NCBI GenBank assembly: GCA_964648855.1
Contig: CAZYLT010000025.1
Span: 1-25,335 of the forward strand
Direction of reading: 5' to 3'
Origin: an uncultured archaeon
GTDB taxonomy: Archaea > Asgardarchaeota > Thorarchaeia > Thorarchaeales > Thorarchaeaceae
DNA length: 25,335 bases
Below, one piece after another: positions 2,277 to 25,335 of the stretch; position 1 is the first letter of the stretch; each line of letters begins with the position of its first letter. The notes under the pieces are model-generated. The model had not been told where the DNA came from and made no database searches. It saw nothing but the letters and a program-made list of their open reading frames with translations. The translations under genes and the position numbers were made by a program.

Positions 2277-3268
2277 GTTCTAAAATTAGAACTATTTACC
2301 TAGAATATACTCGTAAGGCTGAGCGAGCAATAATGAAATCATTGAAGAGCAAGTCCGGCGCACGTTTTTTAAATGGAGGAAACTTCTATTCTGCTCTGGC
2401 TATTCTCTTTGTCATATCATTATCACTTTCATTAGTATTTGGAACTAGCTCCTATCTTCATTTTCCACAGAATCAAGAGCAAGAACAAATGCTTGCTGCT
2501 GAACTGCCGACACTTAGCCTCTCCTACTACTCAAATTGGAATGACACTCTCATTCCGGTAGATTCAGGGGATAGAATCTCGGGCGACCACATTGTTCTCA
2601 ATGTCACTTGGAGTCCCTCGGAAAATGCGAATGGTTCACTCATTGAGGTTAATGCCACAGCAATTCCAATGGTAATCAGTGAATCAACTAATGAATCATC
2701 TGTTGAAATCGATACTAGAGCGCTCGGAAACAATGCAACCGTGAAAATCAACTGCACAACATGGTTGACAAATGGTACCCCCATCTCACAGATTATTGAT
2801 AACGTATTTTTGGGCAACTTCTTCAAACCCCATGTTGAGCTTGTCAGCCCTAATGGTGGCGAAGTGTGGACTGGAATTCATAACATCACCTGGCAGGCAT
2901 GGGATAACAACACGCAAGAGTCTCTAACGTTTGAAGTCTTACTATCTTCTGATGGTGGAATGACCTTCCAATTACTGGAATCCGACCTTACAACAACTTG
3001 GGTCGAATGGGATACTAACGGTTTCTCCAATCTGTCTACATATATGGTGCAAGTTCGTGCAAGTGATGGTATATACATCACAACTGATACTTCGGACTCG
3101 CCTTTTACAGCAGGTAATGTAGATACAGGTCCGCCCTCGGGTACTACCACAAGCACGATTACAAATGACATTGAAGAACTCCGCACTGCTTTATTTATCG
3201 CTGCAGCGATTATTCTGAGCGCTCTCTTTGCTGTAATAGTCTATTATTTGGCCAAGAGGGAATTCTAG
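2273..3268 (+). CDS. Membrane-anchored cell-surface glycoprotein with Ig-like (SPNGGE-type) beta domain
   Basis: ATG at 2273 overlaps the regulator stop (ATGA), with GGAGGG SD at 2261-2266. N-terminal TM/signal helix, beta-rich extracellular part with SPNGGEVW and about 11 N-x-S/T sequons, Thr-rich linker, C-terminal TM plus short basic tail. Confidence 0.75.
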   Translation: MSSKIRTIYLEYTRKAERAIMKSLKSKSGARFLNGGNFYSALAILFVISLSLSLVFGTSSYLHFPQNQEQEQMLAAELPTLSLSYYSNWNDTLIPVDSGDRISGDHIVLNVTWSPSENANGSLIEVNATAIPMVISESTNESSVEIDTRALGNNATVKINCTTWLTNGTPISQIIDNVFLGNFFKPHVELVSPNGGEVWTGIHNITWQAWDNNTQESLTFEVLLSSDGGMTFQLLESDLTTTWVEWDTNGFSNLSTYMVQVRASDGIYITTDTSDSPFTAGNVDTGPPSGTTTSTITNDIEELRTALFIAAAIILSALFAVIVYYLAKREF

Positions 3269-4167
3269 CGGTTCTGCAGTGCCTTTTCAAGAAATGGATT
3301 TGTGTTAATGACATGCTTATGCAGACCTAGGCTCTCTGGATCCAAACCAAGTGCTAGACCAAGCAATTGTGTGTAGTAGATTACAGGTATCTGATACTTT
3401 TTCTCGCCTAGTTCTTTGTTAAGCTGTGCCTGTGACGCCTCATATTGTAGGTGACAAAATGAACACACATTGACCAAGCAGTCAACGCCCTCATCAATTA
3501 GGATATCCAGTTTATCCTTTGCGATGTCTACTGAAACCGGAACGTTACTGCCTCTTACTCCACCGCCAGCACCGCAGCAGATATATTTATCGCGATAATC
3601 GATACTCTCAGCCCCGGTCGCCTCTACAAGCTCATCCAAAAACACATGGCGATATTTGTTTTCCCAAGGTCGAAGCTTACTAGGTTTCAAAAGATGGCAT
3701 CCGTAATGAACGGCCGCTTTGATATGCTCCAGTGGATGAGTGACCATCTCTCTAATTTTCTCGTGCCCAATCTCGTAAATCAACTCAATGATATGTCTGG
3801 CTTCAACTTCTGCGTTATACTTGAGGCCAATTTCCTTCAGATGCTTTTGCACTTCCTTGAGGCGCTTCGGTTGATCGCGGACAATATGAAGTGCATCCTT
3901 GAATGTACCATAGCAACCATTGCATCCAGTTACAATATCGTGACCCGCATTTTCAGCCAATGCTAGATTTCGAGATGCCAAAGCCAGCCAAGTTGGTTCA
4001 TTGAACGACCTTATGACTCCCGGAGCTGGGCAACAGCTTGCACCCTCTAGTTCTTCTAGTTCGATACCGAGTTGAGGCAAAACTGTTCTGATACTCTTCT
4101 CTATATTTGGGAATCTATTTGGCATTACACAGCCCAAAAAGAATGAATATGTTTGGCTCTCTGTCAT
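3265..4167 (-). CDS. hdrB: Heterodisulfide reductase subunit B (copy 1)
   Basis: Two CCG domains: GC...SCCPAPG...GCNGC and HYGCHLLKP...CCGAGGG...CSFCHLQ. Stop overlaps the convergent gene's stop (CTAG). Confidence 0.93.
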   Translation of the reverse strand: MTESQTYSFFLGCVMPNRFPNIEKSIRTVLPQLGIELEELEGASCCPAPGVIRSFNEPTWLALASRNLALAENAGHDIVTGCNGCYGTFKDALHIVRDQPKRLKEVQKHLKEIGLKYNAEVEARHIIELIYEIGHEKIREMVTHPLEHIKAAVHYGCHLLKPSKLRPWENKYRHVFLDELVEATGAESIDYRDKYICCGAGGGVRGSNVPVSVDIAKDKLDILIDEGVDCLVNVCSFCHLQYEASQAQLNKELGEKKYQIPVIYYTQLLGLALGLDPESLGLHKHVINTNPFLEKALQNR

Positions 4168-4170
4168 CTC

Positions 4171-4716
4171 TTACTCTTCCTCTCCTTGCCTCTCAATCAG
4201 CTTCTTGAAGCCAGTTATATCCATGAGCTTCTTGACATCCTTCAGCGCCTCTTCATGAGAATGGACTGTTTCAGGCACTTCGTCTAGTCCTAATTCCCCT
4301 CTCATCTCTTGGTTAGCCTCATCCAGGGGAACCGCGTGTCCTGTGTCCAATAGTTTCTGCGAAACCTTCTTGTGTTGTGGAAGCATGTAACCTTCTTCAA
4401 CTGCCATATTTCGCAAAATCACTATGGCATCCGTGACCTTGATTTGTCTGGGGCACCTTTCAAGGCATGTTAGGCAAGTTGAACACAGCCATAAATCTGG
4501 GCTCGACAAGACATCATCCTTCAGTCCCAAAATCGCTTTCCTCATCAACTCCCTTGTTCTGAATGCGGTCCTTCGACCGCTTGGGCAAACGCTTGAGCAT
4601 GTCCCACATTGAATGCATGTCTTTATTCTATCTGCTCCAGCATCCACCACTCTCTCTACAAAATCAGGGTCAAACCTATCGGAGTCGATTGTTTCGCGTT
4701 TAATTGAATCGGTCAT
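4171..4716 (-). CDS. hdrC: Heterodisulfide reductase subunit C (copy 1)
   Basis: CIQCGTCSSVCP and LWLCSTCLTCLERCP; immediately upstream of hdrB. Confidence 0.93.
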   Translation of the reverse strand: MTDSIKRETIDSDRFDPDFVERVVDAGADRIKTCIQCGTCSSVCPSGRRTAFRTRELMRKAILGLKDDVLSSPDLWLCSTCLTCLERCPRQIKVTDAIVILRNMAVEEGYMLPQHKKVSQKLLDTGHAVPLDEANQEMRGELGLDEVPETVHSHEEALKDVKKLMDITGFKKLIERQGEEE

Positions 4717-4809
4717 TGGAAGCCCTCTGGCGGCCTTTTCGATACCGGCCCAGACGAAAGGAGTGTTATAAGAATGGCGCTTCTGACAACGCAGCTATTG
4801 ACTTTTTTC

Positions 4810-5877
4810 TCAATCGTACGCATATTCTGCATTAGATAGAAGGGTTTTGTTTCCAATCCTAACATTTGTCAATCCTGAATCTTTCGCGATGCGCAAGGCG
4901 ATGTCAGCATGTTTTTTGCTTGTTCTTGGCAGATCCTTCATTTGAAGATGGGGCATGAATCCTAAGAGAGATGTCGGTATAGTTACATCGAGGCTTGCAA
5001 TGAATTCAGTCAGTTTCCGAACCTCGTTTGCCCCTACATATCCAGGAATAAGAAGGATACTAGCAACCAAAAACTCTCCCTCACAGTCCTTGCCCATCTG
5101 GGCGAGCTTCCTAAAATTGTTGATTACAGTTGTGTTAGATACACCTGTTAGAGCTGTATATAGGCTGGGAGTAATGGCTTTGAGGTCAATCTTTATCGTA
5201 CCACCAGATTTTCTAACAATGTCTGCTATATTGCGTAGCCATTTTCCTGAGATGTTTCCATTTGTTTCATAGCATATAGCCACTCCTGCTTCTTCCATCA
5301 AGAGTTGTGCCGTCCTCTGCGAGTGCTGTGGATTACAGGATGGGTCTCCGCCAAAGAAGCAGACACACGCTGTTCTGCTATCCGCAATATCTGCTAGTTG
5401 TTTGGGAGTCAATCGAGGTTCTCCCAACTTCATCATTCTTCTATAGCTTGAATTTTGACAAAAAAGGCAATCCGAATTGCAGGAGCCGTAGAAGACAGCT
5501 AGATTCTTCAGACCAATTCCGCATTTATCTTTCACTGGACAAATCCAATCTGCAACACAATTTGTCGGTAGTGGGTCAAAATACCACCTGACTGGTGCGC
5601 TATCCGAATGCTTTCTGACCACTTCCGAATCAACAACCTCTCTTAAATGACAAAATCCAAAATCGCCTTCATTCATTTCACAATGATTTCCGCAGTCAGA
5701 GCATACTATATTACCCTTTGATGGAGGTTCAGGAACCAAACCAGCTTGTATCCTTGTGTTTATGTGTGCTGCAAGTGCTGTTTCTATAAGAACCGGGTCA
5801 CTAGAAATACAAGAGCCACAGTACCCAATAGAAGCCGATGCTAGCATACCATCTTTATCATGATTCGGACATCTCAT
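4810..5877 (-). CDS. Radical SAM protein, PflA/COG1180-like with Cys-rich N-terminal extension
   Basis: CNSDCLFC (CxxxCxxC), FFGGDP, YETNGN, IKIDLKA; N-terminal CGSC, CSDCGNHC...GFC and DPLPTNCVADWICP. ATG at 5877 (alternative TTG at 5880). Confidence 0.85.
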   Translation of the reverse strand: MRCPNHDKDGMLASASIGYCGSCISSDPVLIETALAAHINTRIQAGLVPEPPSKGNIVCSDCGNHCEMNEGDFGFCHLREVVDSEVVRKHSDSAPVRWYFDPLPTNCVADWICPVKDKCGIGLKNLAVFYGSCNSDCLFCQNSSYRRMMKLGEPRLTPKQLADIADSRTACVCFFGGDPSCNPQHSQRTAQLLMEEAGVAICYETNGNISGKWLRNIADIVRKSGGTIKIDLKAITPSLYTALTGVSNTTVINNFRKLAQMGKDCEGEFLVASILLIPGYVGANEVRKLTEFIASLDVTIPTSLLGFMPHLQMKDLPRTSKKHADIALRIAKDSGLTNVRIGNKTLLSNAEYAYD

Positions 5878-5997
5878 CAAACCAACTACTTATCGAAACA
5901 CGATTAATCTTGTCATTATATGTGTCAAGGGAAAGGTTGATTTAACAATGGATTTAAGGCAAGATTCCAAGCGCAGGCCCGTAGTCGGTGTATCAAT

Positions 5998-6549
5998 GTG
6001 ACAACAGCCGAAGAGAAGCCAGCAATATCAATTGATGACCTTAACTCTGACTTTGTTAGTATGGTCAAAAGAGCGGGAGGTCCGAATATTCAGAGCTGCT
6101 ATCAGTGCGGAACTTGCAGCGGCAGTTGTCCCGCTGGGGCGCGGACGAATTTTCTCGTTCGGGGAATTATTCGAAAGGCACTGCTTGGCCTAAAAGAAGA
6201 GTGTCTAAAAGCTCCCGAGCTTTGGTATTGTACTACTTGCTATACCTGTACTGATCGATGTCCACAGGACGTGACCCCTACTGAGGTTATCAAGGCAATT
6301 CGAAATATCGCGGTGGCGGAGGGTTATATGCTCCAACCACATCAGAAGGTTGCCCAGAAAGTCTTGGAGTCTGGTCACGCGGTCCCCTTAGATAAAGACA
6401 CTTGGGCAAAATTACGAGAAAATGTTGGCTTACCCAGTAGACCTCCAAATGCCAGTACCCATCCTGAGGCAATTGAGGAGGTTCAGAAGCTGGCCAAGAA
6501 GACGGGATTTGATATTCTCGTACAAGACAAACAAGATGATGACGAGTGA
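5998..6549 (+). CDS. hdrC: Heterodisulfide reductase subunit C (copy 2)
   Basis: CYQCGTCSGSCP and LWYCTTCYTCTDRCP; GTG start. Confidence 0.93.
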   Translation: MTTAEEKPAISIDDLNSDFVSMVKRAGGPNIQSCYQCGTCSGSCPAGARTNFLVRGIIRKALLGLKEECLKAPELWYCTTCYTCTDRCPQDVTPTEVIKAIRNIAVAEGYMLQPHQKVAQKVLESGHAVPLDKDTWAKLRENVGLPSRPPNASTHPEAIEEVQKLAKKTGFDILVQDKQDDDE

Positions 6550-6555
6550 TTCGTG

Positions 6556-7500
6556 ATGGCTAAGAAAGAGCAATTCATGCATTTTTTGGGCTGCATAATT
6601 CCCCACAGATATCCGAGCATTCAGAAGGCTACTGAGATAGTCTTTGAGGACTTGGGAATGGAGCTCTTGGATATGGAAGGGGCTACCTGTTGTCCCGCGC
6701 CTGGTGTCTTCGGATCATTCGACAAGGAGACATGGGCAACCATCGCGGCAAGGAACCTCACTATTGCAGAAGAGGCTAACGCTGCCATTACAACTGGCTG
6801 CAATGGCTGTTTTGCCAGTCTATGGGATGCAAATCACGAGTTAAAGCATGATGATGAACTGCGAGAAAAAGTCAATGAGAATCTTGCAGTAATTGGTCGC
6901 GAATTCAAAGGCACAATCGAAGTCACTCATTACGTCGACGCGTTGGTAGACACTGCCGGTCTAGAGAAGATAAGAAAGCGAGTGACGCGACCGTTGAAAG
7001 ATGTACGAATGGCACTGCATCCTGGTTGTCATTGGATGCGACCAAAGGCTGTCAAACAGAAGGACGATTCGGAAAGACCACATATCTTCCGTGAGCTCTG
7101 CGAAACTACTGGTGCTACATACGTACCATACAAGGACGAACTCATGTGTTGTGGAGCTGGTGGAGCAGTCAGGACAGCTGATGTAGAGGTAGCTCTTGAC
7201 TTCACAAAGCAGAAGTTCGATAGTATTGAAGCAGCTGGGGGCGCTGATGTCATCGTTACTCCTTGTCCATTTTGCGAACTACAGCTAGATTTGGGTCAGG
7301 TAGAAATTCAGAAGTATTTCGATGTGAAGTATGTATATGATGTTCTTCATGTCACAGAGATGTTGGCTTTAGCTTTCGGACATAATCCTGATGAATTTGG
7401 CCTCAAGACACATCTGCAATATATGCAGCGCAAGAGTGAACCCAACTGGAAAAAGATTGGTCTTCCAGATATGCTGACGGCTTCCGAATCATCAGATTAG
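6556..7500 (+). CDS. hdrB: Heterodisulfide reductase subunit B (copy 2)
   Basis: GC...TCCPAPG...GCNGC and HPGCH...CCGAGG...CPFC. ATG at 6556 (alternative GTG at 6553). Confidence 0.93.
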   Translation: MAKKEQFMHFLGCIIPHRYPSIQKATEIVFEDLGMELLDMEGATCCPAPGVFGSFDKETWATIAARNLTIAEEANAAITTGCNGCFASLWDANHELKHDDELREKVNENLAVIGREFKGTIEVTHYVDALVDTAGLEKIRKRVTRPLKDVRMALHPGCHWMRPKAVKQKDDSERPHIFRELCETTGATYVPYKDELMCCGAGGAVRTADVEVALDFTKQKFDSIEAAGGADVIVTPCPFCELQLDLGQVEIQKYFDVKYVYDVLHVTEMLALAFGHNPDEFGLKTHLQYMQRKSEPNWKKIGLPDMLTASESSD

Positions 7501-7659: not shown

Positions 7660-7830
7660 AGTATACGCGTGTATATAACCGAGCCGCCTTCATACTATTC
7701 TTGTATTATGTGGGCAATATATAACTCCCACAGTTTCTGGGTCATGCTATGGCTGTGTTTCGCGCCATTGACCGTCGAATAATCGAGTCATCCTTTTATT
7801 TCATGACCCGTCAGCTCATCTATGGAGCTA
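7660..7830 (+). promoter_or_regulatory. Promoter/operator region and candidate structured RNA upstream of hdrA-mvhD
   Basis: TATATAAC at 7672-7679 and 7718-7725. TGTGGG-N12-CCCACA inverted repeat (7709-7732) around the second TATA. Multibranch fold closed by GGGTCATG/CATGACCC (7739-7746 / 7802-7809). Confidence 0.4.
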
Positions 7831-7922
7831 CCACATCATCAACCCAATCAACGCGCAATGACAAACATTTTATCATACAGGTAGAGCTTGCCTCGCCTAA
7901 CAGCCGTGGAGTGAAATCAGGA

Positions 7923-10900
7923 ATGACAGAGGCTGAACATAAGCCAGTAGTAATAGTCGGTGCAGGCATTGCAGGAATGCGTGCGGCGCTGGATTTGGCA
8001 GATATGGGTGCGAGCGTCTATCTCGTTGAGAAGAAGCCTTCAATCGGAGGGCATATGTCTCAGCTGGACAAAACCTTCCCCACCCTAGATTGCGCTATGT
8101 GTATTCAAGGCCCTTGGATGGTTGACTGTTCTCGACATCCAAATATTGAGATTCTAGCATACTCAGAAGTCACCAATGTGACTGGGAAGAAAGGCGACTT
8201 CACCGTGGAGGTGCTTAAGCATACACGACGTGTCAATCCTGACAAATGTACTGGGTGTGGAGATTGTCAGAGAGTGTGCCCAATTGAGGTTCCAAATGAG
8301 TATGATGAGGGCCTCAAAATGCGGAAGGCTTCATACATACCCTTCCCCCAAGCAGTGCCAAATATAGCAACGATTGATATTGAAAATTGCATTCAGTGTA
8401 TGACTTGTGCGAAGTCATGCAAGGCGGAAGCTATCAATTTCGGCATTGAAGATGAAACTGTTAAGATTAACGCTGGCTCAATAATTCTTGCTACAGGATA
8501 TGAACTTCTTGATCCCTCCTCAGTTCCGGAATATGGGTTCGGAAGGATTCCAAACGTTGTCAGTGCTCTTGAATATGAACGGATGGTATCGGCAAGTGGT
8601 CCCACTGAAGGCGTTGTCATGCGCCCCTCAGATAGTAAAGAGCCCCATCGTATTGCATTCATTCAATGTGTTGGTTCTCGAGATGTAAACCATTGTGCTT
8701 ATTGTTCAAAGATATGCTGTACCTATGCGACAAAAGAGGCAATCATCACCAAAGAACATGCTCCAGAAACTGAAATTGATATTCTGTATAATGATATGCG
8801 GGCCTTCGGAAAGGGATTCGAAGAATTCTTAGTTCGGGGCGAAGACGAATACGAAATCAACTATGTCAAAGGCTTGCCTAGTGAAGTCCATGAAGACCCG
8901 TCTACCGGTGATCTCTTGGTAAGACACAGCAATCAGAAGGGTCACGAGGTTCTCGAAGACAGATATGATTTAGTTGTCTTGTGCCCCGCAATGGTGCCTT
9001 CTCACGACACAGCAATCTACGAACAGCTAGGAATTGCCGTAGATGAATATGGGTTCCTGCATGGCTCTGGAAATAAATTGGAAAAATCCTCCTCTGGAAT
9101 TCCAGGAGTTCATATATGTGGCGCCTGTGAATCTCCCAAAGATATTCCTGACTCAGTGGCACAAGGTAGTGCTGCTGCGGCTCTTGCGGCATTGGACATT
9201 TCTATTCCACCACCTGACGAAACCGAGGCATTGACGGAAACCGACCTTGAGTTGATAGCATCAGAACCCCGAATTGGGATTTTCGTGTGCTCTTGCGGCG
9301 TCAATATTGCTGGAACAGTTGATGTTGAGCAAGTCACAGAATACGCGAGCAATCTGCCGGATGTAGTACATGCTGAGAACCTCCTGTATTCTTGCTCATC
9401 GGATGCTCAAGAGGTCATCAAAGAAGCAATTAAACAGAATAATCTGAATAGAGTTATTGTTGCCTCCTGTACTCCACGAACTCATGAGCCACTCTTTCGA
9501 GCAACCATCGAAGAGGCTGGTCTCAACAAGTACCTCTTCGAGCTTGCAAATATTCGGGAGCATTGTTCTTGGGTACATCAGAATACCAAAGATGAGGCAA
9601 CCTCGAAGGCAATGGATTTAGTGAGAATGGCGACGGCACGCTCAAAGCTATTGCAGCCCCAAGAAGAGGCAATAACACAAATAGAGCCAGCAGCATTGGT
9701 CATCGGAGCTGGCGTGGCCGGCATGGCAGCAGCAGATGCCATTGCAGCCAAAGGCTATCAGGTATATCTTGTTGAAAAAGAGGATCGGGTCGGAGGATTT
9801 CTTAACAAACTCCATACTGTGAACTTTGACAACAGACCTACGTCCGAGATAGTTTCCGAGTACGAGGAAAGAATCAATGCTCACTCAAACATCGATTTGA
9901 TGTTAAATTCTAACGTTGTAGGTGCCAAGGGCTCTATAGGTGACTTCGAAGTCACTATTCGTCACGGTGAAGAAGAACAAGAATTGAAGGTTGGTGTTGT
10001 TATAGTTGCGACGGGTGCCGTTGCTCTTGAAGAGGAAGGTCTCTATGGTTACAAGGAGCTTCAAGAAGTTATGACCATGCCGGAGTTCAATAGACGTATC
10101 ATAGAGAAGGATGGCTTAGAAGATGGAGAAACATTCGCAGTCATACATTGTGCAGGCTCTAGAGAAGAACGGAGCCTTGAGGGAGCACGAACTTGGTGCT
10201 CAAGTATCTGTTGCACAGTTGCCCTTGAACATACCCTAGAATTACTTGAAGCCTATCCGAACTCCCGCGTTTTCCATCTCTATCGTGACATGAGGCTGTT
10301 CTACTCAGCGGAGGACAAATACCGGGAAGCCAGAAAGAAGGGTGCAGTATTTGTTCGATTTGGTCAAGACAGTCCCCCTGAAGTAAAGGCAGGAGAAAAC
10401 AAGGAATTGCGTGTATCTGTGAAGGATCAAATCCTAGGTGCAGTTCTAAATCTCAATGTCGACCACGTTGTCTTGGCTACGGCTACTGTTCCGCGGGAAG
10501 GAAACAAGGAGCTATCGGAGGCTTTCAAGATTCCAATGAATCTCTCTGGATTCTTCATGGAGGCACACCCAAAACTCAGACCTGTCGACTTTCAAACTGA
10601 TGGTATCTATGTTGCAGGCTCTGCAACCGCACCAAAAGGCATAGCAGAATCAGTAGCCCAAGGTCGCGGAGCTGCAGCTAGAGCACTCACTCCTCTTATT
10701 CGGGGAATTCGGAAAGCAGAAGCCATAGTATCAGTAGTCGACCCCGAGGTCTGTGTGGGTTGTGGCACCTGTGAAATCAACTGCTCCTACAATGCTATTG
10801 AGGTAATTCCTGGCGATGGAGGACATGATTATGCAGAGAGTAATCCTGTTCTCTGTCAAGGATGTGGAAAGTGTGCTGCAGGATGTCCTGCTGGTGCAAT

Positions 10901-11381: not shown

Positions 11382-11384
11382 CAA

Positions 11385-16154: not shown

Positions 16155-19100
16155 CTACTCCCTCAGCATCTCTTCGATTTGGTCGAGAAAACTCTTCTCA
16201 CGCCACCAACGGAGGTCTCTGGCTCCTGTTGGGCATATTGCACAACACGCACCGCACCCCTCACATCTCATCTCATCGGTCACGCTCTTTTTAACGCCCG
16301 GTTCAATTTCTATCATACTCACCGCATCATACGGACATATCTCCGAGTAATGGCACAAATCGCAGCCGACACAAAGATCTTGATCTACTTCTGCAGTCAA
16401 CAATTCTATCTCTACTGTACCGAGTGTCAATGGTATCGAGGCTTGACTAGCTGCGCCTCGTGACTGATTTACCGAGTCGGCAATATTCTTTGCATAGGTC
16501 ACTCCCAAGAAGATTCCCGGTACAGTCGTTTCGACAGGTCTGAACTTCATATGCATCTCTGCCAGAAAACCATCCTGGCTCTTGTTGATGCCTAAGGCTT
16601 TAACCAGTTCATTGACATCATGTGGAGCTTCAAGTCCCACAGCAAGAACTACCATGTCTGATTCAATCTTCAGAGTTTCTTGAGATAAAGTGTCGTAAAT
16701 TGTTACAATTGCCTCAGAAGTTTCTTCTGCCTTTTCAACTGTGATGGGATTCTCTCTGAGCCAACGAAGGTAAGTTACACCATTCTGTCTGTTTTCTCTC
16801 CACATCTCTTCCATCTTATTTGCATAGGGGCGGATGTGTTCCTTATATGCAGAAAAGATCCTAATATCTGGAAACATCGCCCTCAGCTCTTTTTGCATAG
16901 CAATGACTGCAGAGCAGCAAACACGAGAGCAGTACTTGTTCCCTTCACCCGGAGTCTGCCTTGAACCTACACAATGAATAAAAACTGGGTTCTTTGGGAG
17001 ATCCTTGATTTCGCCGGCCCTTAGTTTTTCTTCTAGATTTTGAGTTGTTATGACTGCTGGCGTTTCTTCCCAACCATATTCGCCCTTCTTGGGTTCGTAG
17101 GTATCGTTTCCCACTGCAACAACCATAGACCCTATTGTGTGTACGCTCTCCTCCCCCGTTTCTAGATTCCTGATTGTCATATCATAGTTTCCATAGGACC
17201 CCTCCCGTTCAACGACTTTGGAGTTCAGAAGCACCTTGATTTTCTTTTCCTTTTCTACTCTTGAAATCAGGTCCTTTACAATGTCTTCTGCGTTCTCCAT
17301 GTTGGGAAAGACGCGATAGAGCCTATTCAATCTACCACCCAATCTATCCTCTTTTTCTACAAGAATGACCTCAAAACCCTTTTTGGCCAAATCCAGGGCT
17401 GCAGTCATTCCCGAAACTCCACCACCGACCACCATGGAGGTGAGCGTCACCTCTACTCTCTCAACAGGGACAAACTCGTTATTGATTGCCTTAGCAACCC
17501 CACTCCTAATCAGATCCTGAGCTTTCTCTTGTCGAACCTCTGGAGGTGCATTTGCATTAACCAACGCCAGATGTTCCCTTAGACCCACCGGCCCAACTAG
17601 GTAATATCCGGAAAGACCTGCAGCTCTCAAAGCAGACCTAAAGGTGGCTTCATGTTGAAGCGGCGAACATGAACCGACCACAACCCTGTTGAGATTATGC
17701 TCCTTTATTGCTTCAGTAATCATCTCTTGACCTGGGTCACTACACATGAACAAATAATCAGTGCTATAAGCTACTCCAGGAATATCCTTTGCCCACTCTG
17801 CTAATCCTGGCGAATCAATGACATTTCCGATAATTCCTCCACAATGACATATAAAGACGCCAACTCTTGGTTCCTCTCCCTCAGGAAGTGGGTCAATGGT
17901 ATCCGGTGGTTTGCTCTCTGGAATTGGTAGTGAACTATGAGCGGCAATGGCTGCTCCCTTTCCTTCATTCACAGTATCAGTTCCATCTCTCGGTCCATGA
18001 ATACATCCTGCCATGAATATGCCTGGTCGACTGGTTTCCAACGCATTCTGATTGGGATGTTTCTCTGCTATCCAACCGGTATCGGCAAGTTCGATATTGA
18101 GTGTCTTTGCCAGCTCCTCATGCCCCTCATTAGGTCTAAAGCTGGAATTGAGAACTACCATAGATACACCCTCTATCTCCATTATCTCTCCTGTATCAGT
18201 ATCCTCAATCTTTACAAAGAGATCATTGGTGTCTAGGTCCTCCGAAATTTCTGCAACTCTACCACGAATAAAATCAATTCCTTGATTCTTTTCGCTATCC
18301 CAGAGAAATTCCTCCAGAGCCTTTCCCGCGGTTCTCATATCCATGTAGGTGTAAATAATCTCACAATGGTCCTCTGGATAATGCATTCTTGTTACTTGTG
18401 CCAATTTGAGTCCAAAAGAGCAACAAACACGATTACAGTGATTGCTGTATCCATCTACTTCCTTTCGGACATCCCTGCTGCCAACACAATTAACGAATAG
18501 AATTTTCTCTGGTTCCTTTCCATCTGAAGGCCGGACCATATGAGCATCGGTTGGTCCTGTTGGATGCGTCTGTCGATCATATTCCAGCGAAGTAACTACA
18601 TTGGGAAACACACCATATCCGTATTCGCCATAATCAACGGGCTTGTACTCCTGGAATCCGGTGGCAACGACAATGGAACCTACGCTAAGGTCGAAGACCT
18701 CATCTTGATCTTCATAATCAATACAGTCCTGAGGGCAAACCCCTGCACAAGTTCCACACCCAATACATGCCTCCCTATCAATGGTGGCAACGAGTGGAAT
18801 CTGCTGTGGAAAATTCAAGTAGATTGCTTTCCTAGTTGAGAGACCAAAATCATATGGGTTTGGTACTTCGACTGGGCAGTTTCTTATGCACATCTTGCAT
18901 CCTGTACATTTGTCTTCATCTACGTATCTAGCCTTCTTTCGCACAGATACAGTGAAATCGCCTGCGCGGCCTTTCACCCTCTCAACTTCCGACAGAGCAT
19001 GGATTGTAATATTCGGATGTTTTCCAACGAATGATGTGAGAGGGGTCATAACACAGGCTGAGCACTCGAGCATTGGGAATATCTTATAGATGGCAACATA

Positions 19101-19259
19101 GTTGCCTCCGATGTTCACCGTCTTCTCGATAATATGGGCATGATGTCCGGCATCCGCCAGGTCTAATGCGGCATTTATGCCAGCCATTCCACCACCTATG
19201 ATTGCAACATCTGTGGGTTTTGGTTTCTCTGAGGTCTTCTTTGCTGAGTCACTGGCCAT
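16155..19259 (-). CDS. hdrA: Double-FAD heterodisulfide reductase subunit A-like protein without MvhD (1034 aa)
   Basis: Start revised to the ATG at 19259 (MASDSAKK...IIGGGMAG), preceded by GAGGT. Same domain order as the other HdrA (two FAD domains with CVGSR...CxRVCC, inserted and C-terminal ferredoxins, VFICHCG domain) but ends after the last ferredoxin. Confidence 0.92.
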   Translation of the reverse strand: MASDSAKKTSEKPKPTDVAIIGGGMAGINAALDLADAGHHAHIIEKTVNIGGNYVAIYKIFPMLECSACVMTPLTSFVGKHPNITIHALSEVERVKGRAGDFTVSVRKKARYVDEDKCTGCKMCIRNCPVEVPNPYDFGLSTRKAIYLNFPQQIPLVATIDREACIGCGTCAGVCPQDCIDYEDQDEVFDLSVGSIVVATGFQEYKPVDYGEYGYGVFPNVVTSLEYDRQTHPTGPTDAHMVRPSDGKEPEKILFVNCVGSRDVRKEVDGYSNHCNRVCCSFGLKLAQVTRMHYPEDHCEIIYTYMDMRTAGKALEEFLWDSEKNQGIDFIRGRVAEISEDLDTNDLFVKIEDTDTGEIMEIEGVSMVVLNSSFRPNEGHEELAKTLNIELADTGWIAEKHPNQNALETSRPGIFMAGCIHGPRDGTDTVNEGKGAAIAAHSSLPIPESKPPDTIDPLPEGEEPRVGVFICHCGGIIGNVIDSPGLAEWAKDIPGVAYSTDYLFMCSDPGQEMITEAIKEHNLNRVVVGSCSPLQHEATFRSALRAAGLSGYYLVGPVGLREHLALVNANAPPEVRQEKAQDLIRSGVAKAINNEFVPVERVEVTLTSMVVGGGVSGMTAALDLAKKGFEVILVEKEDRLGGRLNRLYRVFPNMENAEDIVKDLISRVEKEKKIKVLLNSKVVEREGSYGNYDMTIRNLETGEESVHTIGSMVVAVGNDTYEPKKGEYGWEETPAVITTQNLEEKLRAGEIKDLPKNPVFIHCVGSRQTPGEGNKYCSRVCCSAVIAMQKELRAMFPDIRIFSAYKEHIRPYANKMEEMWRENRQNGVTYLRWLRENPITVEKAEETSEAIVTIYDTLSQETLKIESDMVVLAVGLEAPHDVNELVKALGINKSQDGFLAEMHMKFRPVETTVPGIFLGVTYAKNIADSVNQSRGAASQASIPLTLGTVEIELLTAEVDQDLCVGCDLCHYSEICPYDAVSMIEIEPGVKKSVTDEMRCEGCGACCAICPTGARDLRWWREKSFLDQIEEMLRE

Positions 19260-19285
19260 TGACCATACCTCTTGGGGCTTTGCGC

Positions 19286-19319
19286 CAACGCGACCGTTGA
19301 CAGCTTGGGCGATATAATC
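19286..19319 (-). promoter_or_regulatory. Putative promoter/operator of the second hdrA
   Basis: TATA-like GATTATAT (19319-19312) preceded by a purine-rich CAGAAA; perfect inverted repeat CAACG-N4-CGTTG (19286-19299) near the expected transcription start. Confidence 0.35.
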
Positions 19320-19432
19320 TTTCTGTCGTGGCGAAGAACATTTTTCCTTGCTCAAATAAGCTCTGTAAAAAGAAAGGAATTTAGTTCCCTACTCAAAGAG
19401 GTCTAGTTAGTCCGAGAACTGGAGGGTATCGC

Positions 19433-20066: not shown

Positions 20067-20918
20067 CTATGATTTTACTCTGTAATATGCTTCCCATGGC
20101 ACTGGATCGGAATAACCTAGCTTTTCTGCGAGTTTTATGGATGCCAAATTAGCGGCATCCCAGTGAGGAACAATGTCATTTTCGAGGGCGTATTCGATAA
20201 GAGCTGCTGAAACAGCGGTTGCAAGCCCTCTTCTTCTATAATGGGGGCTCTCCACTGTATCAACCTGCACCTGAAATTCATCAATAAACGGGAATGCTGA
20301 GTATGCTAAGCTAAAGATCTGATTCTCTTGAACCGCACAAAACCCTACACCATGTTGGAGCAGCCCGTCAACGCCTCTAAAATGCAAGTCTATTATTCTA
20401 CAAACCGCCGGATTTACCCTCCTGAGGTTGTCACGATTTATCTTCTGCAATTCGAATCCTGAAGGAATATTGTTTTTCAAGCGGCGAATCATTGCAATGT
20501 CAAGCGAATCTGGGTTGAATTTGGTTCTCTGTTGTACTCGCAGTTCCTCGCCATACTGTTCCTTTACAAGCCGCGCCCAGTCGTCATCGGGTACTATTAT
20601 GATATTTAGATAGGGAATTGTTTCGACAAGTAGTTGTGCCTCATCAGAGTGAGGGTTTCCAGCTACAAAATTCATGGGGTAATAACTGAACCATGCTACA
20701 TTCGGTTCTGACACGGAATCAACTCGGAGATGACCGAGACCTAATCTCAAAGTTTGAAATAAAATCGCCTCCGCATGCCTATGCCCCGCGAACACATGTA
20801 CAATATTGGTCCTATCGTCCATCCACTCTATAAACAAAGCATAATCCTCAGGAGCATCAATTGTAATCGTGATGACTTCATCTGTACATATTTTGCTTGA
20901 ATTTATTATTTTTGACAC
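20067..20918 (-). CDS. GNAT-family acetyltransferase
   Basis: YRRRGLATAV acetyl-CoA motif and PHWDAANLASIKLAEKLGY. Start uncertain; it may be downstream of the GTG at 20918. Confidence 0.85.
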   Translation of the reverse strand: MSKIINSSKICTDEVITITIDAPEDYALFIEWMDDRTNIVHVFAGHRHAEAILFQTLRLGLGHLRVDSVSEPNVAWFSYYPMNFVAGNPHSDEAQLLVETIPYLNIIIVPDDDWARLVKEQYGEELRVQQRTKFNPDSLDIAMIRRLKNNIPSGFELQKINRDNLRRVNPAVCRIIDLHFRGVDGLLQHGVGFCAVQENQIFSLAYSAFPFIDEFQVQVDTVESPHYRRRGLATAVSAALIEYALENDIVPHWDAANLASIKLAEKLGYSDPVPWEAYYRVKS

Positions 20919-21016: not shown

Positions 21017-22045
21017 GTGCGCTATATCAAGATATCAAAAGAGAATACATACAAGTTCCTAGAGCGGCTCAAAGAGGTTGGAACTCTTCATGCTCCGATG
21101 AAGATCTCTGAGAAGTTCTATGATTTCTGCGAAGTTGATGACGTAAAGGAAGTTGCATTCGAATATAATCGAACCATTAGACCTCCTCGTCGTTTCTTCT
21201 ATCCCGAAGAAGAGGTCATGTTCAAGTTTGACACAGCTCGGGGCGAAATGTATGAAAACACCCCACGTGACAAGAGAGTCATCCTATTTGGAGTGCATAA
21301 TTGTGACATCGTTGGTCTGCGAATTATGGACTCTGTATTCATGGACGAACAACCAGACCCATATTATCAGAAACGAAGAACGAGCGGCATAATTATCGGC
21401 CTATCCTGCCTTCCAGATGAGTATTGCTTCTGCAATGTAAGACGTATTGAATTTGTGGACGCTGGCTTTGACTTATTTTTCCATGAGCTGCCTGACGGAT
21501 TTTTAGTCAGGGTTGGAACCGTAACGGGTCACAAGTTAGTAGACCCCTACCCTGAGCTCTTTGAGGAAATCACTGACAAAGATACCAAAAACCTGGAGGA
21601 ATTCGAAGCGAAGAAGGCAAGTATGTGGACTGTAAAGGGCAACTGGGATGATTTGAGATACTTCCTTGAGATGCGAATGGACCACGAGATGTACGACCGT
21701 GAGAGCGACAAATGCCTCGGCTGTGGAAATTGTACTCTAACCTGTCCGACCTGTCGCTGTCATACCTACAGAGATATCCCAAGCATTGACGGACGCACGG
21801 GTGAGAGAATAAAATACTGGGATTCATGTCAGTTTCGGTCACATGGGCTTGTTGCTGGGCCTCACAATTTTCGGCCCACTAAGAAGTCCAGATTTTTCAA
21901 TCGTTACCAGTGTAAGAATGCATATTGTCCCGATACAACTACTGCGTACTGTGTGGGATGCGGCAGATGCACCTATTTCTGTCCAGCTGAAATCAACTTC
22001 AAGAAAAACCTCATGGAGATTGGTGGCTATAAGGAGGTGGTCTAA
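21017..22045 (+). CDS. hydB: Group 3b [NiFe] (sulf)hydrogenase beta subunit, Fe-S
   Basis: MRYIKISKENTYKFLERLK N-terminus like Pyrococcus SHI beta; CLPDEYCFC, CLGCGNCTLTCPTCRC, CVGCGRCTYFCP. Confidence 0.92.
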   Translation: MRYIKISKENTYKFLERLKEVGTLHAPMKISEKFYDFCEVDDVKEVAFEYNRTIRPPRRFFYPEEEVMFKFDTARGEMYENTPRDKRVILFGVHNCDIVGLRIMDSVFMDEQPDPYYQKRRTSGIIIGLSCLPDEYCFCNVRRIEFVDAGFDLFFHELPDGFLVRVGTVTGHKLVDPYPELFEEITDKDTKNLEEFEAKKASMWTVKGNWDDLRYFLEMRMDHEMYDRESDKCLGCGNCTLTCPTCRCHTYRDIPSIDGRTGERIKYWDSCQFRSHGLVAGPHNFRPTKKSRFFNRYQCKNAYCPDTTTAYCVGCGRCTYFCPAEINFKKNLMEIGGYKEVV

Positions 22046-22912
22046 TTGACAAATAACAATGGCTCTAAGGCTAACATCTATGATACAAACAAGTGCCGTC
22101 TGCTCAGAAGATACCCATTGACTGAACAAGAAGATTTGTTCCTATTTCGCTTTGAAGACTCTGAAGTCGCACAGAACTGGCGCTTTAAGCCAGGTCAATT
22201 TGTTCAGGTGTCTCTGCTTGGCCTTGGAGAAGTGCCTATATCCATCTGCTCATCGGCGAGAAGAATGGGTTTCTTTGAGTTGTGCATACGAAATACAGGG
22301 AAAGTGACTTCACAAATTCATCAGCTGGAACCGGGTGATTTGGTTGGTATCAGAGGGCCATACGGAAACGGGTTCCCCATGGAGCAGTTCCACGGACGGG
22401 ATTTGCTCTGTGTTGCTGCAGGACTTGGAATGGCACCGCTGCGGTCAGTATTTCTCTATGCTATTGACAATCGATGGCAATTTGGGAACATCACTATAAT
22501 CAATACTGCCAAGTATGGCAAAGAATTGTTGTTTGAGAAAGAACTGGAAGCAATGAAGGATATTGCTACCGCGGAGAACATTGCAATAGTTCAAAGCGTC
22601 ACCAGAGACCCCGAATATCCAAGTTTCCATGGCAGGGCGACCGAGCATATGGATAAGGCCAATGTAGACCCGAAGAATTGTGCCGTTGCAATGTGTGGGC
22701 CTCCAGCAATGTATCGAGGCATGTTCGACCACTTGGTTGAATCTGGTTATGACCCGCGCTATATATGGGTCACTCTAGAGCGAAAGATGTACTGTGGGAC
22801 TGGAAAATGTGGACACTGTAACATCGGTACCGCGACCTCATGGAAGTATGCGTGTAAGGATGGTCCGGTGTTTGACTACTACGCAATAACTTCCATTCCG
22901 GGGTTGATATAG
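22046..22912 (+). CDS. hydG: Group 3b [NiFe] (sulf)hydrogenase gamma subunit, FAD/NAD(P)-binding, [2Fe-2S]
   Basis: FKPGQFVQ, GEVPISICSS, RGPYGNGF, AAGLGMAPLRS, CGPPAM, CGTGKCGHC...CKDGPVF. Confidence 0.94.
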   Translation: MTNNNGSKANIYDTNKCRLLRRYPLTEQEDLFLFRFEDSEVAQNWRFKPGQFVQVSLLGLGEVPISICSSARRMGFFELCIRNTGKVTSQIHQLEPGDLVGIRGPYGNGFPMEQFHGRDLLCVAAGLGMAPLRSVFLYAIDNRWQFGNITIINTAKYGKELLFEKELEAMKDIATAENIAIVQSVTRDPEYPSFHGRATEHMDKANVDPKNCAVAMCGPPAMYRGMFDHLVESGYDPRYIWVTLERKMYCGTGKCGHCNIGTATSWKYACKDGPVFDYYAITSIPGLI

Positions 22913-22913
22913 A

Positions 22914-23732
22914 ATGGCCATTATTGACGAATGCAGAACTGATTGTAAACCAAGAGTCGGTGTATACGGGCTCACTTCTTGTTATGGCTGTCAACTGAAA
23001 CTAGCAACCGTTCAGAAGATTCTGGAGATTGCCGATGCTTTTCAAATCGAGAGTTTCTACATGATGTCCAGCAATAGCAAGATTCCAGCAGATGTGGATA
23101 TCGCATTTGTTGAGGGTTCAGTTTCTACCGAGAAGGACTTGGAGGAACTAAAGGAGATACGAAAACACTCACGCATTGTTGTCGCATTAGGTGCATGTGC
23201 TGTCCATGGAGGTGTACAGAGTTGGGCGGAAGGAGAGATGAGCATTGATGAACTCCACTCAACTGTTTACGGGGATGCTAAGATAGATATGAAACCACTT
23301 CAAGCAACTCCAATAGAACAACATGTTGAAGTTGACTATTCTCTTCCTGGTTGTCCCCCAGAGGAAGATGAATTGATGTATTTCATATCGGCCTTCTTAT
23401 TTGGCACGTACCCGGAGCCAAAGGACTATCCAGTCTGTGCTGAGTGTCGACTTGCAGGCAATCCTTGTATCCTTATTGAGAGAGACGCTCCCTGTTTAGG
23501 GCCAGTGATCACTGCAGGATGCAAGGCAAGGTGCCCCTCATTCAACGTACCATGTGTGGGCTGTAGAGGTCCAGTACCGTATGAAACCGCTTGGTTTGAC
23601 TCATTGGCTAAGACATTTCGGATGAAAGGAATGGATAAGGAATTTATCCGGGACAGGTTGCGTGTTTTTGGGGCACACGATTCCAATCTTGAGCCCATGC
23701 TTAGGGAAATTTTCGGAGAGGAGAGCGAATGA
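22914..23732 (+). CDS. hydD: Group 3b [NiFe] hydrogenase small (delta) subunit
   Basis: LTSCYGCQ, VEGSV, GACAVHGG, PGCPP, PVCAEC...PCLGPVITAGCKARCP...CVGCRGP. Confidence 0.94.
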   Translation: MAIIDECRTDCKPRVGVYGLTSCYGCQLKLATVQKILEIADAFQIESFYMMSSNSKIPADVDIAFVEGSVSTEKDLEELKEIRKHSRIVVALGACAVHGGVQSWAEGEMSIDELHSTVYGDAKIDMKPLQATPIEQHVEVDYSLPGCPPEEDELMYFISAFLFGTYPEPKDYPVCAECRLAGNPCILIERDAPCLGPVITAGCKARCPSFNVPCVGCRGPVPYETAWFDSLAKTFRMKGMDKEFIRDRLRVFGAHDSNLEPMLREIFGEESE

Positions 23733-25066
23733 CATCGACTGAAAAGAAGAAATCAAGTAAGAAATCGAAATTGACTCGTCCAATCAATGTTGATCATATT
23801 GCCAGAATTGAGGGAAAGGCAGGCATTGAGGTTATCTATGATGGAAAGACTGTTGAAGTCGTAAACGTGAACGTCTTCGAGGGACCACGTTATTTCGAGG
23901 CGATAACATTGGGCAAACCCGTCGAAGAAGCTGCAGCTGTCTTTCCCCGAGTCTGTTCTTTCTGTGCTGCAGCACACAAGATCACTGCAGTTGAAGCAAT
24001 AGAGGATGCTATCGGCCTGGAGCCTACAGAGCAGACCAAGAAATTCCGAGAGCTACTATACATAGGCGACTATCTGGAGAGCCATGCTCTTCATCTCTTT
24101 CTACTGGTTTTGCCAGACTTTCTCGGTTATCCTGGCGCCTTTACAATGGCGAAGGACTATCCTGACACTGTGAAAGCTGGAATGAAAATGAAAGACATCG
24201 GTGCAGACATCCAAACCGTAATCGGGTCTAGGTATATTCATCAGGAGAATCTACTCCTTGGTGGTTTTGGTTCTCTCCCCCCCAAGAATAAACTACTCTC
24301 TCTAGCGAGCAGATTGAAATCTCTCCGAAATGAATCTGAAGAGGCCCTTGAACATCTCGTCAGCTATCGGAATTGGCCTGAAGTTCAGGCTGCTCGCAAT
24401 CATCTTGCTTTGCAACCTCTAGGCAAGCACTATACAATGTTTGGCAGCGAAATCCACTCAACTGATGGTGGAAAATTCAAGAATGATGCATATGAGATGA
24501 GAATTTCAGAATCTGTGGTTCCACATTCGTTTGCAAAACATTCTCACTATAATGATGCTCCATTCATGACTGGTGCACTATCTCGCTATACACTCTTCAA
24601 TGGTACGCTTGAAGGACGAGCGAAGGAACTCGCTGGAATGTACAAAACCTATCTTGATTCGGACAATCCTATGTCCAATAATTTCGCTCAGGCGATCGAG
24701 CTTGTCTATTACACTCATAGAGCAGAAGCCATTAGTCGTGATTTGGCTGATAATTTGAAACGCTATGAACAGAGAATACAACCAAGGATTGTACCTGGAA
24801 CTGGGGTGTCTGTAACAGAGGCTCCAAGGGGTCTATTGGCATATACAATAGGTGTTGATAAGAACGGGAGAGTCAACAAATGCGACATCATAACGCCCAC
24901 AGCCATGTTTCTTCCTATCATGGAGGCGGATCTTCAACGGATGTCACAGGGATTATTGAACAAGGGTTTGAAAGATACCAAAGAGATTGGCAAGAAACTG
25001 GAAACCGTTGTCCGCTCTTACGACCCGTGTGTTTCTTGCAGTGTCCATGTCACCGAACTAAAGTGA
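23729..25066 (+). CDS. hydA: Group 3b [NiFe] hydrogenase large (alpha) subunit
   Basis: ARIEGK, L1 motif RVCSFCAAAH, EAPRG, L2 motif RSYDPCVSCSVH plus short cleavable tail VTELK; ATGA overlap with hydD. Confidence 0.95.
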   Translation: MTSTEKKKSSKKSKLTRPINVDHIARIEGKAGIEVIYDGKTVEVVNVNVFEGPRYFEAITLGKPVEEAAAVFPRVCSFCAAAHKITAVEAIEDAIGLEPTEQTKKFRELLYIGDYLESHALHLFLLVLPDFLGYPGAFTMAKDYPDTVKAGMKMKDIGADIQTVIGSRYIHQENLLLGGFGSLPPKNKLLSLASRLKSLRNESEEALEHLVSYRNWPEVQAARNHLALQPLGKHYTMFGSEIHSTDGGKFKNDAYEMRISESVVPHSFAKHSHYNDAPFMTGALSRYTLFNGTLEGRAKELAGMYKTYLDSDNPMSNNFAQAIELVYYTHRAEAISRDLADNLKRYEQRIQPRIVPGTGVSVTEAPRGLLAYTIGVDKNGRVNKCDIITPTAMFLPIMEADLQRMSQGLLNKGLKDTKEIGKKLETVVRSYDPCVSCSVHVTELK

Positions 25067-25093
25067 TCTAATAACTTCCGAGGGAAGGAACTG

Positions 25094-25335
25094 ATGCATG
25101 GTTACATGGGGAAAATACTCACTGTTAACCTCACAAAAGCAGTAGTTTCGGATATCTCGATAGAACCCGAAATTGCTCAATCATTCATAGGAGGAAGTGG
25201 CTATGCAGCAAGGTTACTGTATGATTACCTGGATCCAAATGTACAACCACTCGATCCTGAAAATCCACTCTTATTCATGACTGGTCCGCTGACCGGAACC
25301 CTAGCCCCCTGTACCGGTCGTCATGTGGTTTGCTC
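25094..25335 (+). CDS. aor: Aldehyde:ferredoxin oxidoreductase family protein (only the 5' portion is in the window)
   Basis: Manual translation MHGYMGKILTVNLT...FIGGSGYAARLLY...PLDPENPLLFMTGPLTGT...GRH is the AOR N-terminal signature; 27 nt after the hydA stop. Confidence 0.88.
   Translation, partial: MHGYMGKILTVNLTKAVVSDISIEPEIAQSFIGGSGYAARLLYDYLDPNVQPLDPENPLLFMTGPLTGTLAPCTGRHVVC

Follow-up and report, generated by a model that had tools for sequence, protein, structure and literature searches.

A Thorarchaeota gene island encoding two putative Hdr-type electron-bifurcating modules

The window analysed here is a whole contig (C25; 25,335 nt) of an archaeal assembly (G000; 3.11 Mb in 62 contigs, completeness 94.6%, contamination 4.75%), and it carries a set of genes for soluble heterodisulfide reductase (Hdr). 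No closer relatives of eukaryotes than the Asgard archaea are known, and the energy metabolism of these archaea has been inferred almost entirely from genomes. The window holds a gene island that is conserved across one Thorarchaeota family and that probably encodes two soluble Hdr-type units for flavin-based electron bifurcation (or confurcation). For Thorarchaeota, this narrows the question of the disulfide and its donor to two conserved modules, with what appears to be a single competent half in each HdrA, no dependence on group 3 hydrogenases, and DUF2096 and a radical SAM enzyme as testable accessories.

Two conserved modules

Gene calls were made from Pfam and NCBIfam profile matches. 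In this way we confirmed all the parts listed in an initial annotation of the window, namely three hdrCB pairs, two HdrA proteins of more than 1000 amino acids (aa), one MvhD domain, a group 3b hydrogenase, AOR, KOR, a kinase, an ADP-ribosylglycohydrolase (ARH), a GNAT acetyltransferase, a radical SAM enzyme and DUF2096. The first HdrC-HdrB pair, hdrB1 (3265-4167, minus strand; TIGR03288 382.8, cut-off 345; 334 bits against 5odc_B) and hdrC1 (4171-4716, minus strand; TIGR03290 207, cut-off 160), is preceded by the radical SAM gene (4810-5880, minus strand; Radical_SAM match, Cys-rich N-terminus), which lies 93 nt upstream of hdrC1. These three genes diverge across a 117-nt spacer from the second pair, hdrC2 (5998-6549, plus strand; TIGR03290 194, above the cut-off) and hdrB2 (6553-7500, plus strand; TIGR03288 381, above the cut-off; 328.6 bits against 8rvv_B). 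The third pair, hdrC3 (11385-11903, plus strand) and hdrB3 (11904-12779, plus strand), with both proteins below the TIGR equivalog cut-offs, follows a gene on the same strand for a fused HdrA-HdrA'-MvhD/FlpD protein with two flavin adenine dinucleotide (FAD) domains (FlpD E-value 3.4e-45). The open reading frame (ORF) of this fused HdrA spans 7749-11381 and encodes 1210 aa; because its homologues measure about 1150 aa, the ATG at 7923 is the probable start (1152 aa). Gaps inside the three hdrC-hdrB pairs are 0-3 nt (0 nt for pair 3), and 3 nt separate the fused HdrA gene from hdrC3. The second double HdrA (16155-19355, minus strand; 1066 aa; Pfam, domain map against 9sfi_A) lacks MvhD and is separated by 7 nt from the DUF2096 gene (15581-16147, minus strand; Pfam).

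To see how far this arrangement is shared, we turned to 24 genomes of the same family, from 16 genera. Nearly all of the closest homologues of the largest window protein (71-94% identity) bear the name Candidatus Thorarchaeota. Lokiarchaeota, Helarchaeota and Bathyarchaeota supply the more distant ones (47-50% identity), and a single homologue with 77% identity carries the label Hermodarchaeota. An orthologue of the MvhD-less HdrA, with at least 74% identity, was present in all 24 family genomes, and in most of them the fused HdrA was encoded on the same contig, 2-10 kb away. Thirteen islands were inspected, and the eleven complete ones, from ten genera, share one order: KorA-ferredoxin, a helix-turn-helix (HTH) gene with a surface-protein gene, hdrB1C1, (radical SAM), hdrC2B2, hdrA-A'-mvhD-hdrC3B3, a variable insert, and DUF2096-hdrA-A'. 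The comparison of synteny across relatives proposed in the initial annotation therefore came out in favour of a conserved clustering. When the six hdrB loci of the genome were placed at random in 3.11 Mb, three fell within 9.6 kb in only about 6 of 10,000 trials; the clustering of hdr genes exceeds chance.

Two genomes (G008 and G015) lack the operon of the fused HdrA and hdrC3B3 and keep everything else, and the same operon stands alone in a genome of another Asgard family (G031). For these reasons we divide the island into two modules. Module 1 consists of the MvhD-less hdrA-hdrA', DUF2096 and the unlinked heads hdrC1B1 and hdrC2B2, usually with the radical SAM gene and often beside the 3b hydrogenase. 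Module 2 consists of hdrA-hdrA'-mvhD with hdrC3B3 (7923-12779, plus strand) and also occurs in other Asgard lineages. Gene order and co-occurrence favour a pairing of hdrC3B3 with the fused HdrA, and of hdrC1B1 and hdrC2B2 with the MvhD-less HdrA.

DUF2096 was adjacent to HdrA in all thirteen islands inspected. It has only two cysteines, and its AlphaFold model is a helical bundle with a KH-like domain; with Foldseek, only weak KH-like matches for the C-terminal domain were obtained, all with E-values above 0.1. As the protein has two cysteines only and no significant structural match, it looks, on the strength of the model, like an adaptor or regulator and not like a redox protein. A homologue search returned only Thorarchaeota-type proteins among the matches listed; the family also occurs in Methanocaldococcus jannaschii, and a literature search found no report on its function. 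A second linkage of DUF2096 and hdr was observed in the same genome, where a cassette at C23:28011-29410 holds an hdrC-like gene (181 aa), a 107-aa ORF with weak similarity to HdrB and a paralogue restricted to DUF2096_N (173 aa), beside an AOR fragment at the contig end.

The double HdrA proteins and a proposed electron path

Compared with 5odc_A and 9sfi_A, both large HdrA proteins gave three-segment matches and revealed the same domain order: FAD domain 1 with an inserted two-cluster ferredoxin domain and without an N-terminal cluster domain, a linker, an N-terminal cluster domain, FAD domain 2 without an inserted ferredoxin, a C-terminal two-cluster ferredoxin domain and, in the first protein only, MvhD, which matches 5odc_D and 7bkb_F. 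Both polypeptides carry the two thioredoxin-reductase-type FAD domains that define type II (fused double) HdrA. Each large HdrA is a single-chain, one-sided pseudo-dimer. The fused HdrA was modelled as a single chain by AlphaFold (pLDDT 81.7, pTM 0.84); in Foldseek, the model matched 5odc_A with a TM-score of 0.76 over the target, methanogen HdrA proteins giving TM-scores by target of 0.76-0.92, and a Hyphomicrobium HdrA-like subunit (PDB 6tjr) was a significant match to half 1. The best NCBIfam model for this protein is HdrA2 (1159 bits, cut-off 1100), a score inflated by the duplication.

We then compared the halves at the positions of E356 and K409 (5ODC numbering), residues that tune the bifurcating FAD and that PMC12054007 regards as key to bifurcation. 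In an alignment of the halves, half 1 of both proteins kept the Cys-x-x-Cys that includes the Cys197 equivalent, together with the K409 equivalent; at the position of E356, the MvhD-fused HdrA has E and the MvhD-less one D. Half 2 of both proteins is without these cysteines and has E or A at the K409-equivalent position. Among 30 homologues of the fused HdrA, ranging from Thorarchaeota to Bathyarchaeota, half 1 had the E, the K and both Cys in every case, and half 2 had the Lys in three and the Cys in none. The same half-1/half-2 residue pattern was found in a split hdrA/hdrA' encoded on C23. Only half 1 of each HdrA is thus predicted to be bifurcation-competent. In three orthologues of the MvhD-less HdrA (G017:C6:31342-34515, G018:C45:3-3104 and G021:C185:12799-15978), we observed one or two in-frame TGA codons each, possibly encoding selenocysteine; the window copy has no such interruption.

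By homology to the methanogen structures and to the self-heterodimer model in print, each HdrA would contain one complete electron path. Electrons would enter at the C-terminal ferredoxin domain of half 2, via MvhD in module 2, cross the N-terminal cluster, which would be completed by the half-1 cysteine, and reach the half-1 flavin, where they would be split. One electron would pass through the inserted ferredoxin domain to ferredoxin, and the other through HdrC to the two non-cubane clusters of HdrB, where the disulfide would be reduced. In reverse, the same unit could merge electrons from ferredoxin and thiols. Candidates for the mid-potential partner are H2 through VhuAG encoded elsewhere in the genome, H2 or NADPH through the adjacent 3b hydrogenase, and F420H2. 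Since the island survives without group 3 hydrogenases, this partner is probably not fixed. A cytoplasmic thiol/disulfide hub of this kind would balance ferredoxin from KOR and AOR against H2 and nicotinamide or deazaflavin carriers.

Such a shared pool would fit the many CCG enzymes of the genome, of which we counted eleven of the HdrD-like kind and six of the HdrB type. Among the eleven HdrD-like genes, eight adjoin members of one GlcD/Dld-type flavoenzyme family, and the disulfide is probably shared with these eight pairs. They lie on C1, C2, C3, C7, C8, C9, C14 and C26 (for example C8:47365-49925 and C14:28557-31183), and their HdrD-like partner consists of a ferredoxin domain and two CCG domains.

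Substrate, donors and accessory genes

All three HdrB proteins have two CCG domains and 11 cysteines and keep the cluster cysteines, at positions that align with 5odc_B and 8rvv_B; HdrC1 and HdrC3 have 8 cysteines and HdrC2 has 9. The two CxxCxxCxxxC motifs of HdrC and the ten cluster cysteines of HdrB that characterise soluble HdrABC are therefore in place. HdrB1 retains the CCPAPG and CCGAGGGVR motifs of 5odc_B, and HdrB2 likewise has methanogen-type CCPAPG/CCGAGG surroundings, while the surroundings of the CCG motifs in HdrB3 diverge from the methanogen type. Pairs 1 and 2 score above the curated equivalog cut-offs for the CoB-CoM (coenzyme B-coenzyme M) Hdr and pair 3 scores below them. 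We rejected the HdrB cut-off as evidence for these coenzymes: of the 41 Asgard genomes searched, 31 have an HdrB that exceeds it, other families reaching higher scores, and because none of these genomes belongs to a known methanogen, it is not diagnostic of the substrate.

At 94.6% completeness, we did not find in the genome mcrA, ComA, the DsrC family, CdhC (acetyl-CoA synthase) or a molybdopterin oxidoreductase of any kind; the last result implies that the genome has no Fdh or Fwd. Neither Mcr nor a recognised coenzyme M (CoM) biosynthesis, which would be expected with an Hdr acting on CoM-S-S-CoB, was thus at hand. A split ComD/ComE-like thiamine-diphosphate decarboxylase is encoded at C3:184552-185810; both halves are below the curated cut-offs, and phosphonopyruvate decarboxylase is matched about equally well. 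The substrate of this enzyme bears on the possibility of CoM synthesis. Also present are two MtrH, two CofE and one FrhB-like gene. Further Hdr-related genes lie on other contigs: C4 has an hdrCB with a two-HdrA set, C14 a truncated HdrA-MvhD, and C6 a canonical 653-aa HdrA without adjacent hdrBC, 22 kb from mvhD-vhuG-vhuA. This C6 set is one of two VhuG/VhuA-type group 3c hydrogenases with MvhD in the genome; the other, on C23, has its VhuAG about 5 kb upstream of a split operon hdrC-hdrB-hdrA(443 aa)-hdrA'(589 aa)-mvhD.

The initial annotation had stated that the window holds no mvhAG, fdh, mcr, dsrC or aprAB, and indeed none of these was among its ORFs; its description of the organism as a non-methanogenic archaeon agrees with the missing mcrA. 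Its broader claim, that the Hdr locus has no canonical donor or acceptor partner, stood for the acceptor, with no recognised disulfide system (ComA and DsrC not found), and fell for the donor, being true of the window only, since the two VhuAG and MvhD sets lie elsewhere. It had also named two outcomes that would overturn it, a genome with mcr, CoM/CoB pathways and mvhAG, or a clustering that relatives do not share. Neither came about, as there is no mcr and the clustering is conserved, yet VhuAG is present.

These observations bear on the possibility of an ordinary MvhADG-HdrABC that reduces CoM-S-S-CoB, with CoM and CoB made or imported by unrecognised routes and with HdrB1C1 or HdrB2C2 serving the canonical HdrA and VhuAGD of C6, as in methanogens with unlinked hdrCB and hdrA. 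The equivalog scores and kept motifs of heads 1 and 2, the HdrA on C6 with no heads of its own at some distance from its hydrogenase, the MtrH genes and the ComDE-like decarboxylase would all fit, as would the joint absence of VhuA and the canonical HdrA from two family genomes (G002 and G005), as if the two work together. On the other side are the missing mcrA and ComA, the sub-cut-off scores and equivocal match of the decarboxylase, the spread of above-cut-off HdrB among Asgard genomes, and the persistence of both methanogen-type heads in genomes without canonical HdrA (G002, G005 and G012) or VhuA. We regard this explanation as unlikely.

As to donors, the hydrogenase genes of the window, hydB-hydG-hydD-hydA (21017-25066, plus strand), diverge from the MvhD-less hdrA. 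Their best NCBIfam matches are the sulfhydrogenase-1 subunits HydB, HydG, HydD and HydA, all below the Thermococcales equivalog cut-offs. The L1 (RxCxxCxxxH) and L2 (DPCxxCxxH) Ni-Fe motifs of HydA are intact, and HydG carries FAD_binding_6/NAD_binding_1, features by which the four-subunit enzyme can be classed as group 3b-like; a second 3b-like hydrogenase is encoded on C3. An orthologue of the window enzyme was detected in 12 of the 24 family genomes. It was on the island contig in ten of the twelve, within 2-7 kb of hdrA in nine and at about 15 kb in G012; in the other two it was at contig breaks. VhuA-type genes were found in 20 of the 24 genomes. G002 and G005 have the full island and only sub-cut-off matches to NiFe large subunits, and neither has a group 3 hydrogenase; the island thus does not require H2 as its donor. 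Of the features of an Mvh/Vhu-Hdr complex, the MvhD adaptor is found on the first HdrA only, and mvhA and mvhG are neither encoded with hdr nor always co-occurring with it. In another Asgard family, a stretch of genome G032 (C10:1-19900) encodes a double HdrA with a separate MvhD, followed directly by HydB- and HydG-like genes; no match to a hydrogenase catalytic subunit was found in the stretch examined, which hints at an NAD(P)H-linked Hdr variant.

Several points weigh against the reading of the island as two bifurcating units. The electron path is a transfer by homology from the structures of methanogens, half 2 may yet bind FAD and fulfil its own function, and the disulfide substrate has no recognised system among the genes found. 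For the assignment of HdrBC to HdrA, gene order and co-occurrence are the only guides. The heads outnumber the flavoproteins by three to two, and one head may serve the orphan canonical 653-aa HdrA on C6, although G002, G005 and G012 keep both methanogen-type heads without it. Finally, half of the family lacks the neighbouring hydrogenase.

The variable insert between the modules contains a PAS/HATPase_c sensor kinase (12814-14592, plus strand; Pfam), which starts 34 nt after hdrB3 and has HATPase_c but no HisKA Pfam match, and a DraG-like ARH (14601-15497, minus strand; Pfam), which converges on the kinase. A PAS kinase was in this insert only in G000, G001, G009 and G023, and ARH only within the same genus. 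The GNAT gene (20067-20918, minus strand; PF12746), between hdrA and the hydrogenase, was found only in G001 among the relatives inspected, a genus-specific insert. Kinase, ARH and GNAT, which the initial annotation had presented as interleaved parts of the locus, are not conserved in relatives and are not core parts of the island. Because kinase and ARH together are shared only with the same-genus genome, a regulatory link to Hdr is local at best. An Rfam scan of the window matched no family, and among the intergenic regions of the island we found no motif that linked two promoter regions; repeats were almost entirely coding, many of them between hdr paralogues.

These results also bear on a new, self-contained network in which any HdrA could work with any HdrBC head, under the control of the local kinase, ARH and GNAT and with no need of Mvh-type partners. 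That one conserved island holds two flavoproteins together with three diverged heads, that it persists without group 3 hydrogenases and that the kinase begins so soon after hdrB3 could be so explained. Against such free combination, the putative regulators are genus-level or sporadic inserts, no shared regulatory motif was found, MvhD-type partners exist in the genome, and the MvhD-fused HdrA and hdrC3B3 form a fixed operon, in another Asgard family as well, which points to a dedicated pairing. We therefore hold free combination to be quite improbable.

At the left end of the island, a KorA-like 2-oxoacid:acceptor oxidoreductase alpha subunit (83-1213, minus strand; POR_N/PFOR_II; NF006412 566 bits, cut-off 411) and a small 2x[4Fe-4S] ferredoxin-like gene (1215-1595, minus strand) form a conserved flank, found also in G009, G013, G019 and G023. 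Next come an HTH protein (1794-2276, plus strand; HTH_5) and a protein of 342 aa (2240-3268, plus strand) with hydrophobic stretches close to both of its ends, the HTH gene overlapping the start of its gene; this pair is kept just upstream of hdrB1 in most family genomes inspected and is probably not a redox part. At the right end, the N-terminus of AOR (25094-25333, plus strand; AFOR_N) is cut by the contig end and resumes at the start of C24, where C24:3-1595 shares 85% identity with the orthologue in G001 over residues 68-598 of the latter. The genes downstream of AOR on C24 are collinear with those of G001, a genome of the same genus, which makes C24 the neighbour of C25. A join to the end of C23, prompted by the hdrC-like gene, the DUF2096_N paralogue and the AOR fragment there, was rejected: by blastn, the post-AOR region of G001 had no similarity to C23, and it is collinear with C24.

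The clustering could also be no more than an inherited gene order, with no functional coupling among the modules, the hydrogenase and KOR/AOR. All island genomes belong to one family, whose shared ancestry may explain the conservation; moreover, the modules are on different strands, variable inserts of 3-7 kb lie between them, and half of the family lacks the hydrogenase. Despite these inserts and losses, the core pairs stay together across the ten genera with a complete island, the 3b orthologue is mostly found close to hdrA where it exists, and random placement of hdrB rarely gives such a cluster. Mere inheritance is, in our judgement, very improbable.

The radical SAM enzyme has a CxxxCxxC motif in its translation. 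NCBIfam gave only weak AmmeMemoRadiSam/PflA-like matches, below the cut-offs, and no match to lipoyl-synthase-type families; no solved structure was matched by sequence. The gene was present in 19 of the 24 family genomes and missing from the otherwise intact islands of G009, G013, G019 and G023; homologues with 33-46% identity in nine other Asgard genomes had no hdr neighbours. It is thus an optional accessory of module 1. In sulfur oxidisers, the clusters for sHdr contain lipoate-related radical SAM genes besides two hdrCB pairs, with the order hdrC1B1-hdrA-hyp-hdrC2B2 and with genes for a lipoate-binding protein and sulfur carriers. The heads of module 1 might similarly act on a protein-bound or sulfur-carrying substrate, or serve only as electron-transfer modules, and both the flanking of the radical SAM gene by two different hdrCB pairs and the match of half 1 to the Hyphomicrobium protein could be read in this way; with a radical SAM enzyme that matches no lipoyl-synthase-type family and is dispensable in five of the 24 genomes, no lbpA, dsrE or tusA in the window, no DsrC in the genome, and a similarity of HdrB1 and HdrB2 to methanogen HdrB (328-334 bits) far above what the sHdr type would lead one to expect, we give this idea very little chance indeed.

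Returning to the two bifurcating units, we also entertained a bolder version, in which module 1 would be a new Hdr complex: a one-sided HdrA pseudo-dimer with two methanogen-type heads, with DUF2096 as the adaptor in place of MvhD, wired to the adjacent 3b hydrogenase and interconverting H2/NADPH, ferredoxin and one or two Asgard thiol cofactors, with the radical SAM enzyme acting on the complex or the cofactor. We regard this extension as unlikely.

Comparison with known Hdr systems

With MvhAGD-HdrABC of hydrogenotrophic methanogens (5ODC; 8RVU, 9SFI, 7BKB), the island shares all HdrA domains, HdrC, HdrB and MvhD, recognisable with strong scores, the cysteines for all clusters and the active-site motifs of HdrB1 and HdrB2. 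It differs in that the window HdrA is a fused, one-sided pseudo-dimer and not a symmetric homodimer, MvhD is fused to one HdrA and absent from the other, mvhAG is outside the locus, neither mcr nor a recognised pathway to CoM was found in the genome, and the island occurs in genomes without group 3 hydrogenase. HdrA2B2C2 of Methanosarcina acetivorans, which depends on F420H2 and ferredoxin (PMC5296606), likewise has MvhD at the C-terminus of HdrA and hdrCB in the same operon; the HdrA2 model gave the best NCBIfam match, and F420 genes are in the genome. HdrA2, however, has a single flavin domain, and the window organism is not a methanogen. The DsrC-linked systems (Flx-Hdr, Qmo/Dsr) are unlike the island, as the genome has no DsrC and the window no Apr or Dsr partners (apr and dsrAB were not searched genome-wide).

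Type II HdrA is closer. It has been classified, with no biochemistry for the type, and in methane-metabolising archaea both halves keep K409 and E356 (PMC12054007); a self-heterodimeric fused HdrA was proposed for anaerobic methanotrophic archaea (ANME), with Cys197 as the ligand given to the N-terminal cluster of the partner, in a paper that also points to the MetFV-HdrABC-MvhD complex of Moorella (PMC9012536). As in those proteins, the two thioredoxin-reductase domains are in one chain, and Cys197 lies in the half complementary to that with the N-terminal cluster domain; the fusion resembles one between the class without N- and C-terminal Fe-S domains and a fuller class. Unlike the proteins of PMC12054007, the window proteins and the 30 Asgard and Bathyarchaeota homologues have the bifurcation residues in half 1 only, and the order of the halves is opposite to that of ANME HdrA3/4 (PMC9012536). 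The partners also differ: DUF2096, a radical SAM enzyme and a 3b hydrogenase here, a molybdopterin protein and an F420 dehydrogenase in ANME and methanogens.

Published models for Asgard archaea already include much of this. They describe confurcation by Hdr-Mvh in MK-D1 and, for Sif- and Jordarchaeia, Dld genes placed together with those of an HdrD complex (PMC9723677), HdrABC with an unidentified heterodisulfide in Atabeya- and Freyarchaeia, with Hdr genes among the most highly expressed Asgard metabolic genes (PMC11291895), multiple hdrA in 16 of 18 Thorarchaeota assemblies, with a double HdrA fused to MvhD (PMC11237513), and, in Helarchaeota, subunits of a 3b hydrogenase clustered with a disulfide reductase that bears MvhD (PMC6478937, PMC9723726). 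The candidate new bifurcation network with an unknown thiol/disulfide proposed in the initial annotation is thus a working model already in print (PMC11291895, PMC9723677). In searchable papers, we did not find described the family-wide two-module island, the DUF2096 and radical SAM accessories, the loss of bifurcation residues from half 2 or the persistence without hydrogenases. With the published Asgard models, the island shares the phylum and gene families, the question of the disulfide, the GlcD/Dld-HdrD pairs and the linkage of 3b hydrogenase to Hdr. It is a lineage-specific variant of a known system and reveals no new principle, and its value lies in the precise constructs and pairings that it offers for biochemistry on the Asgard heterodisulfide.

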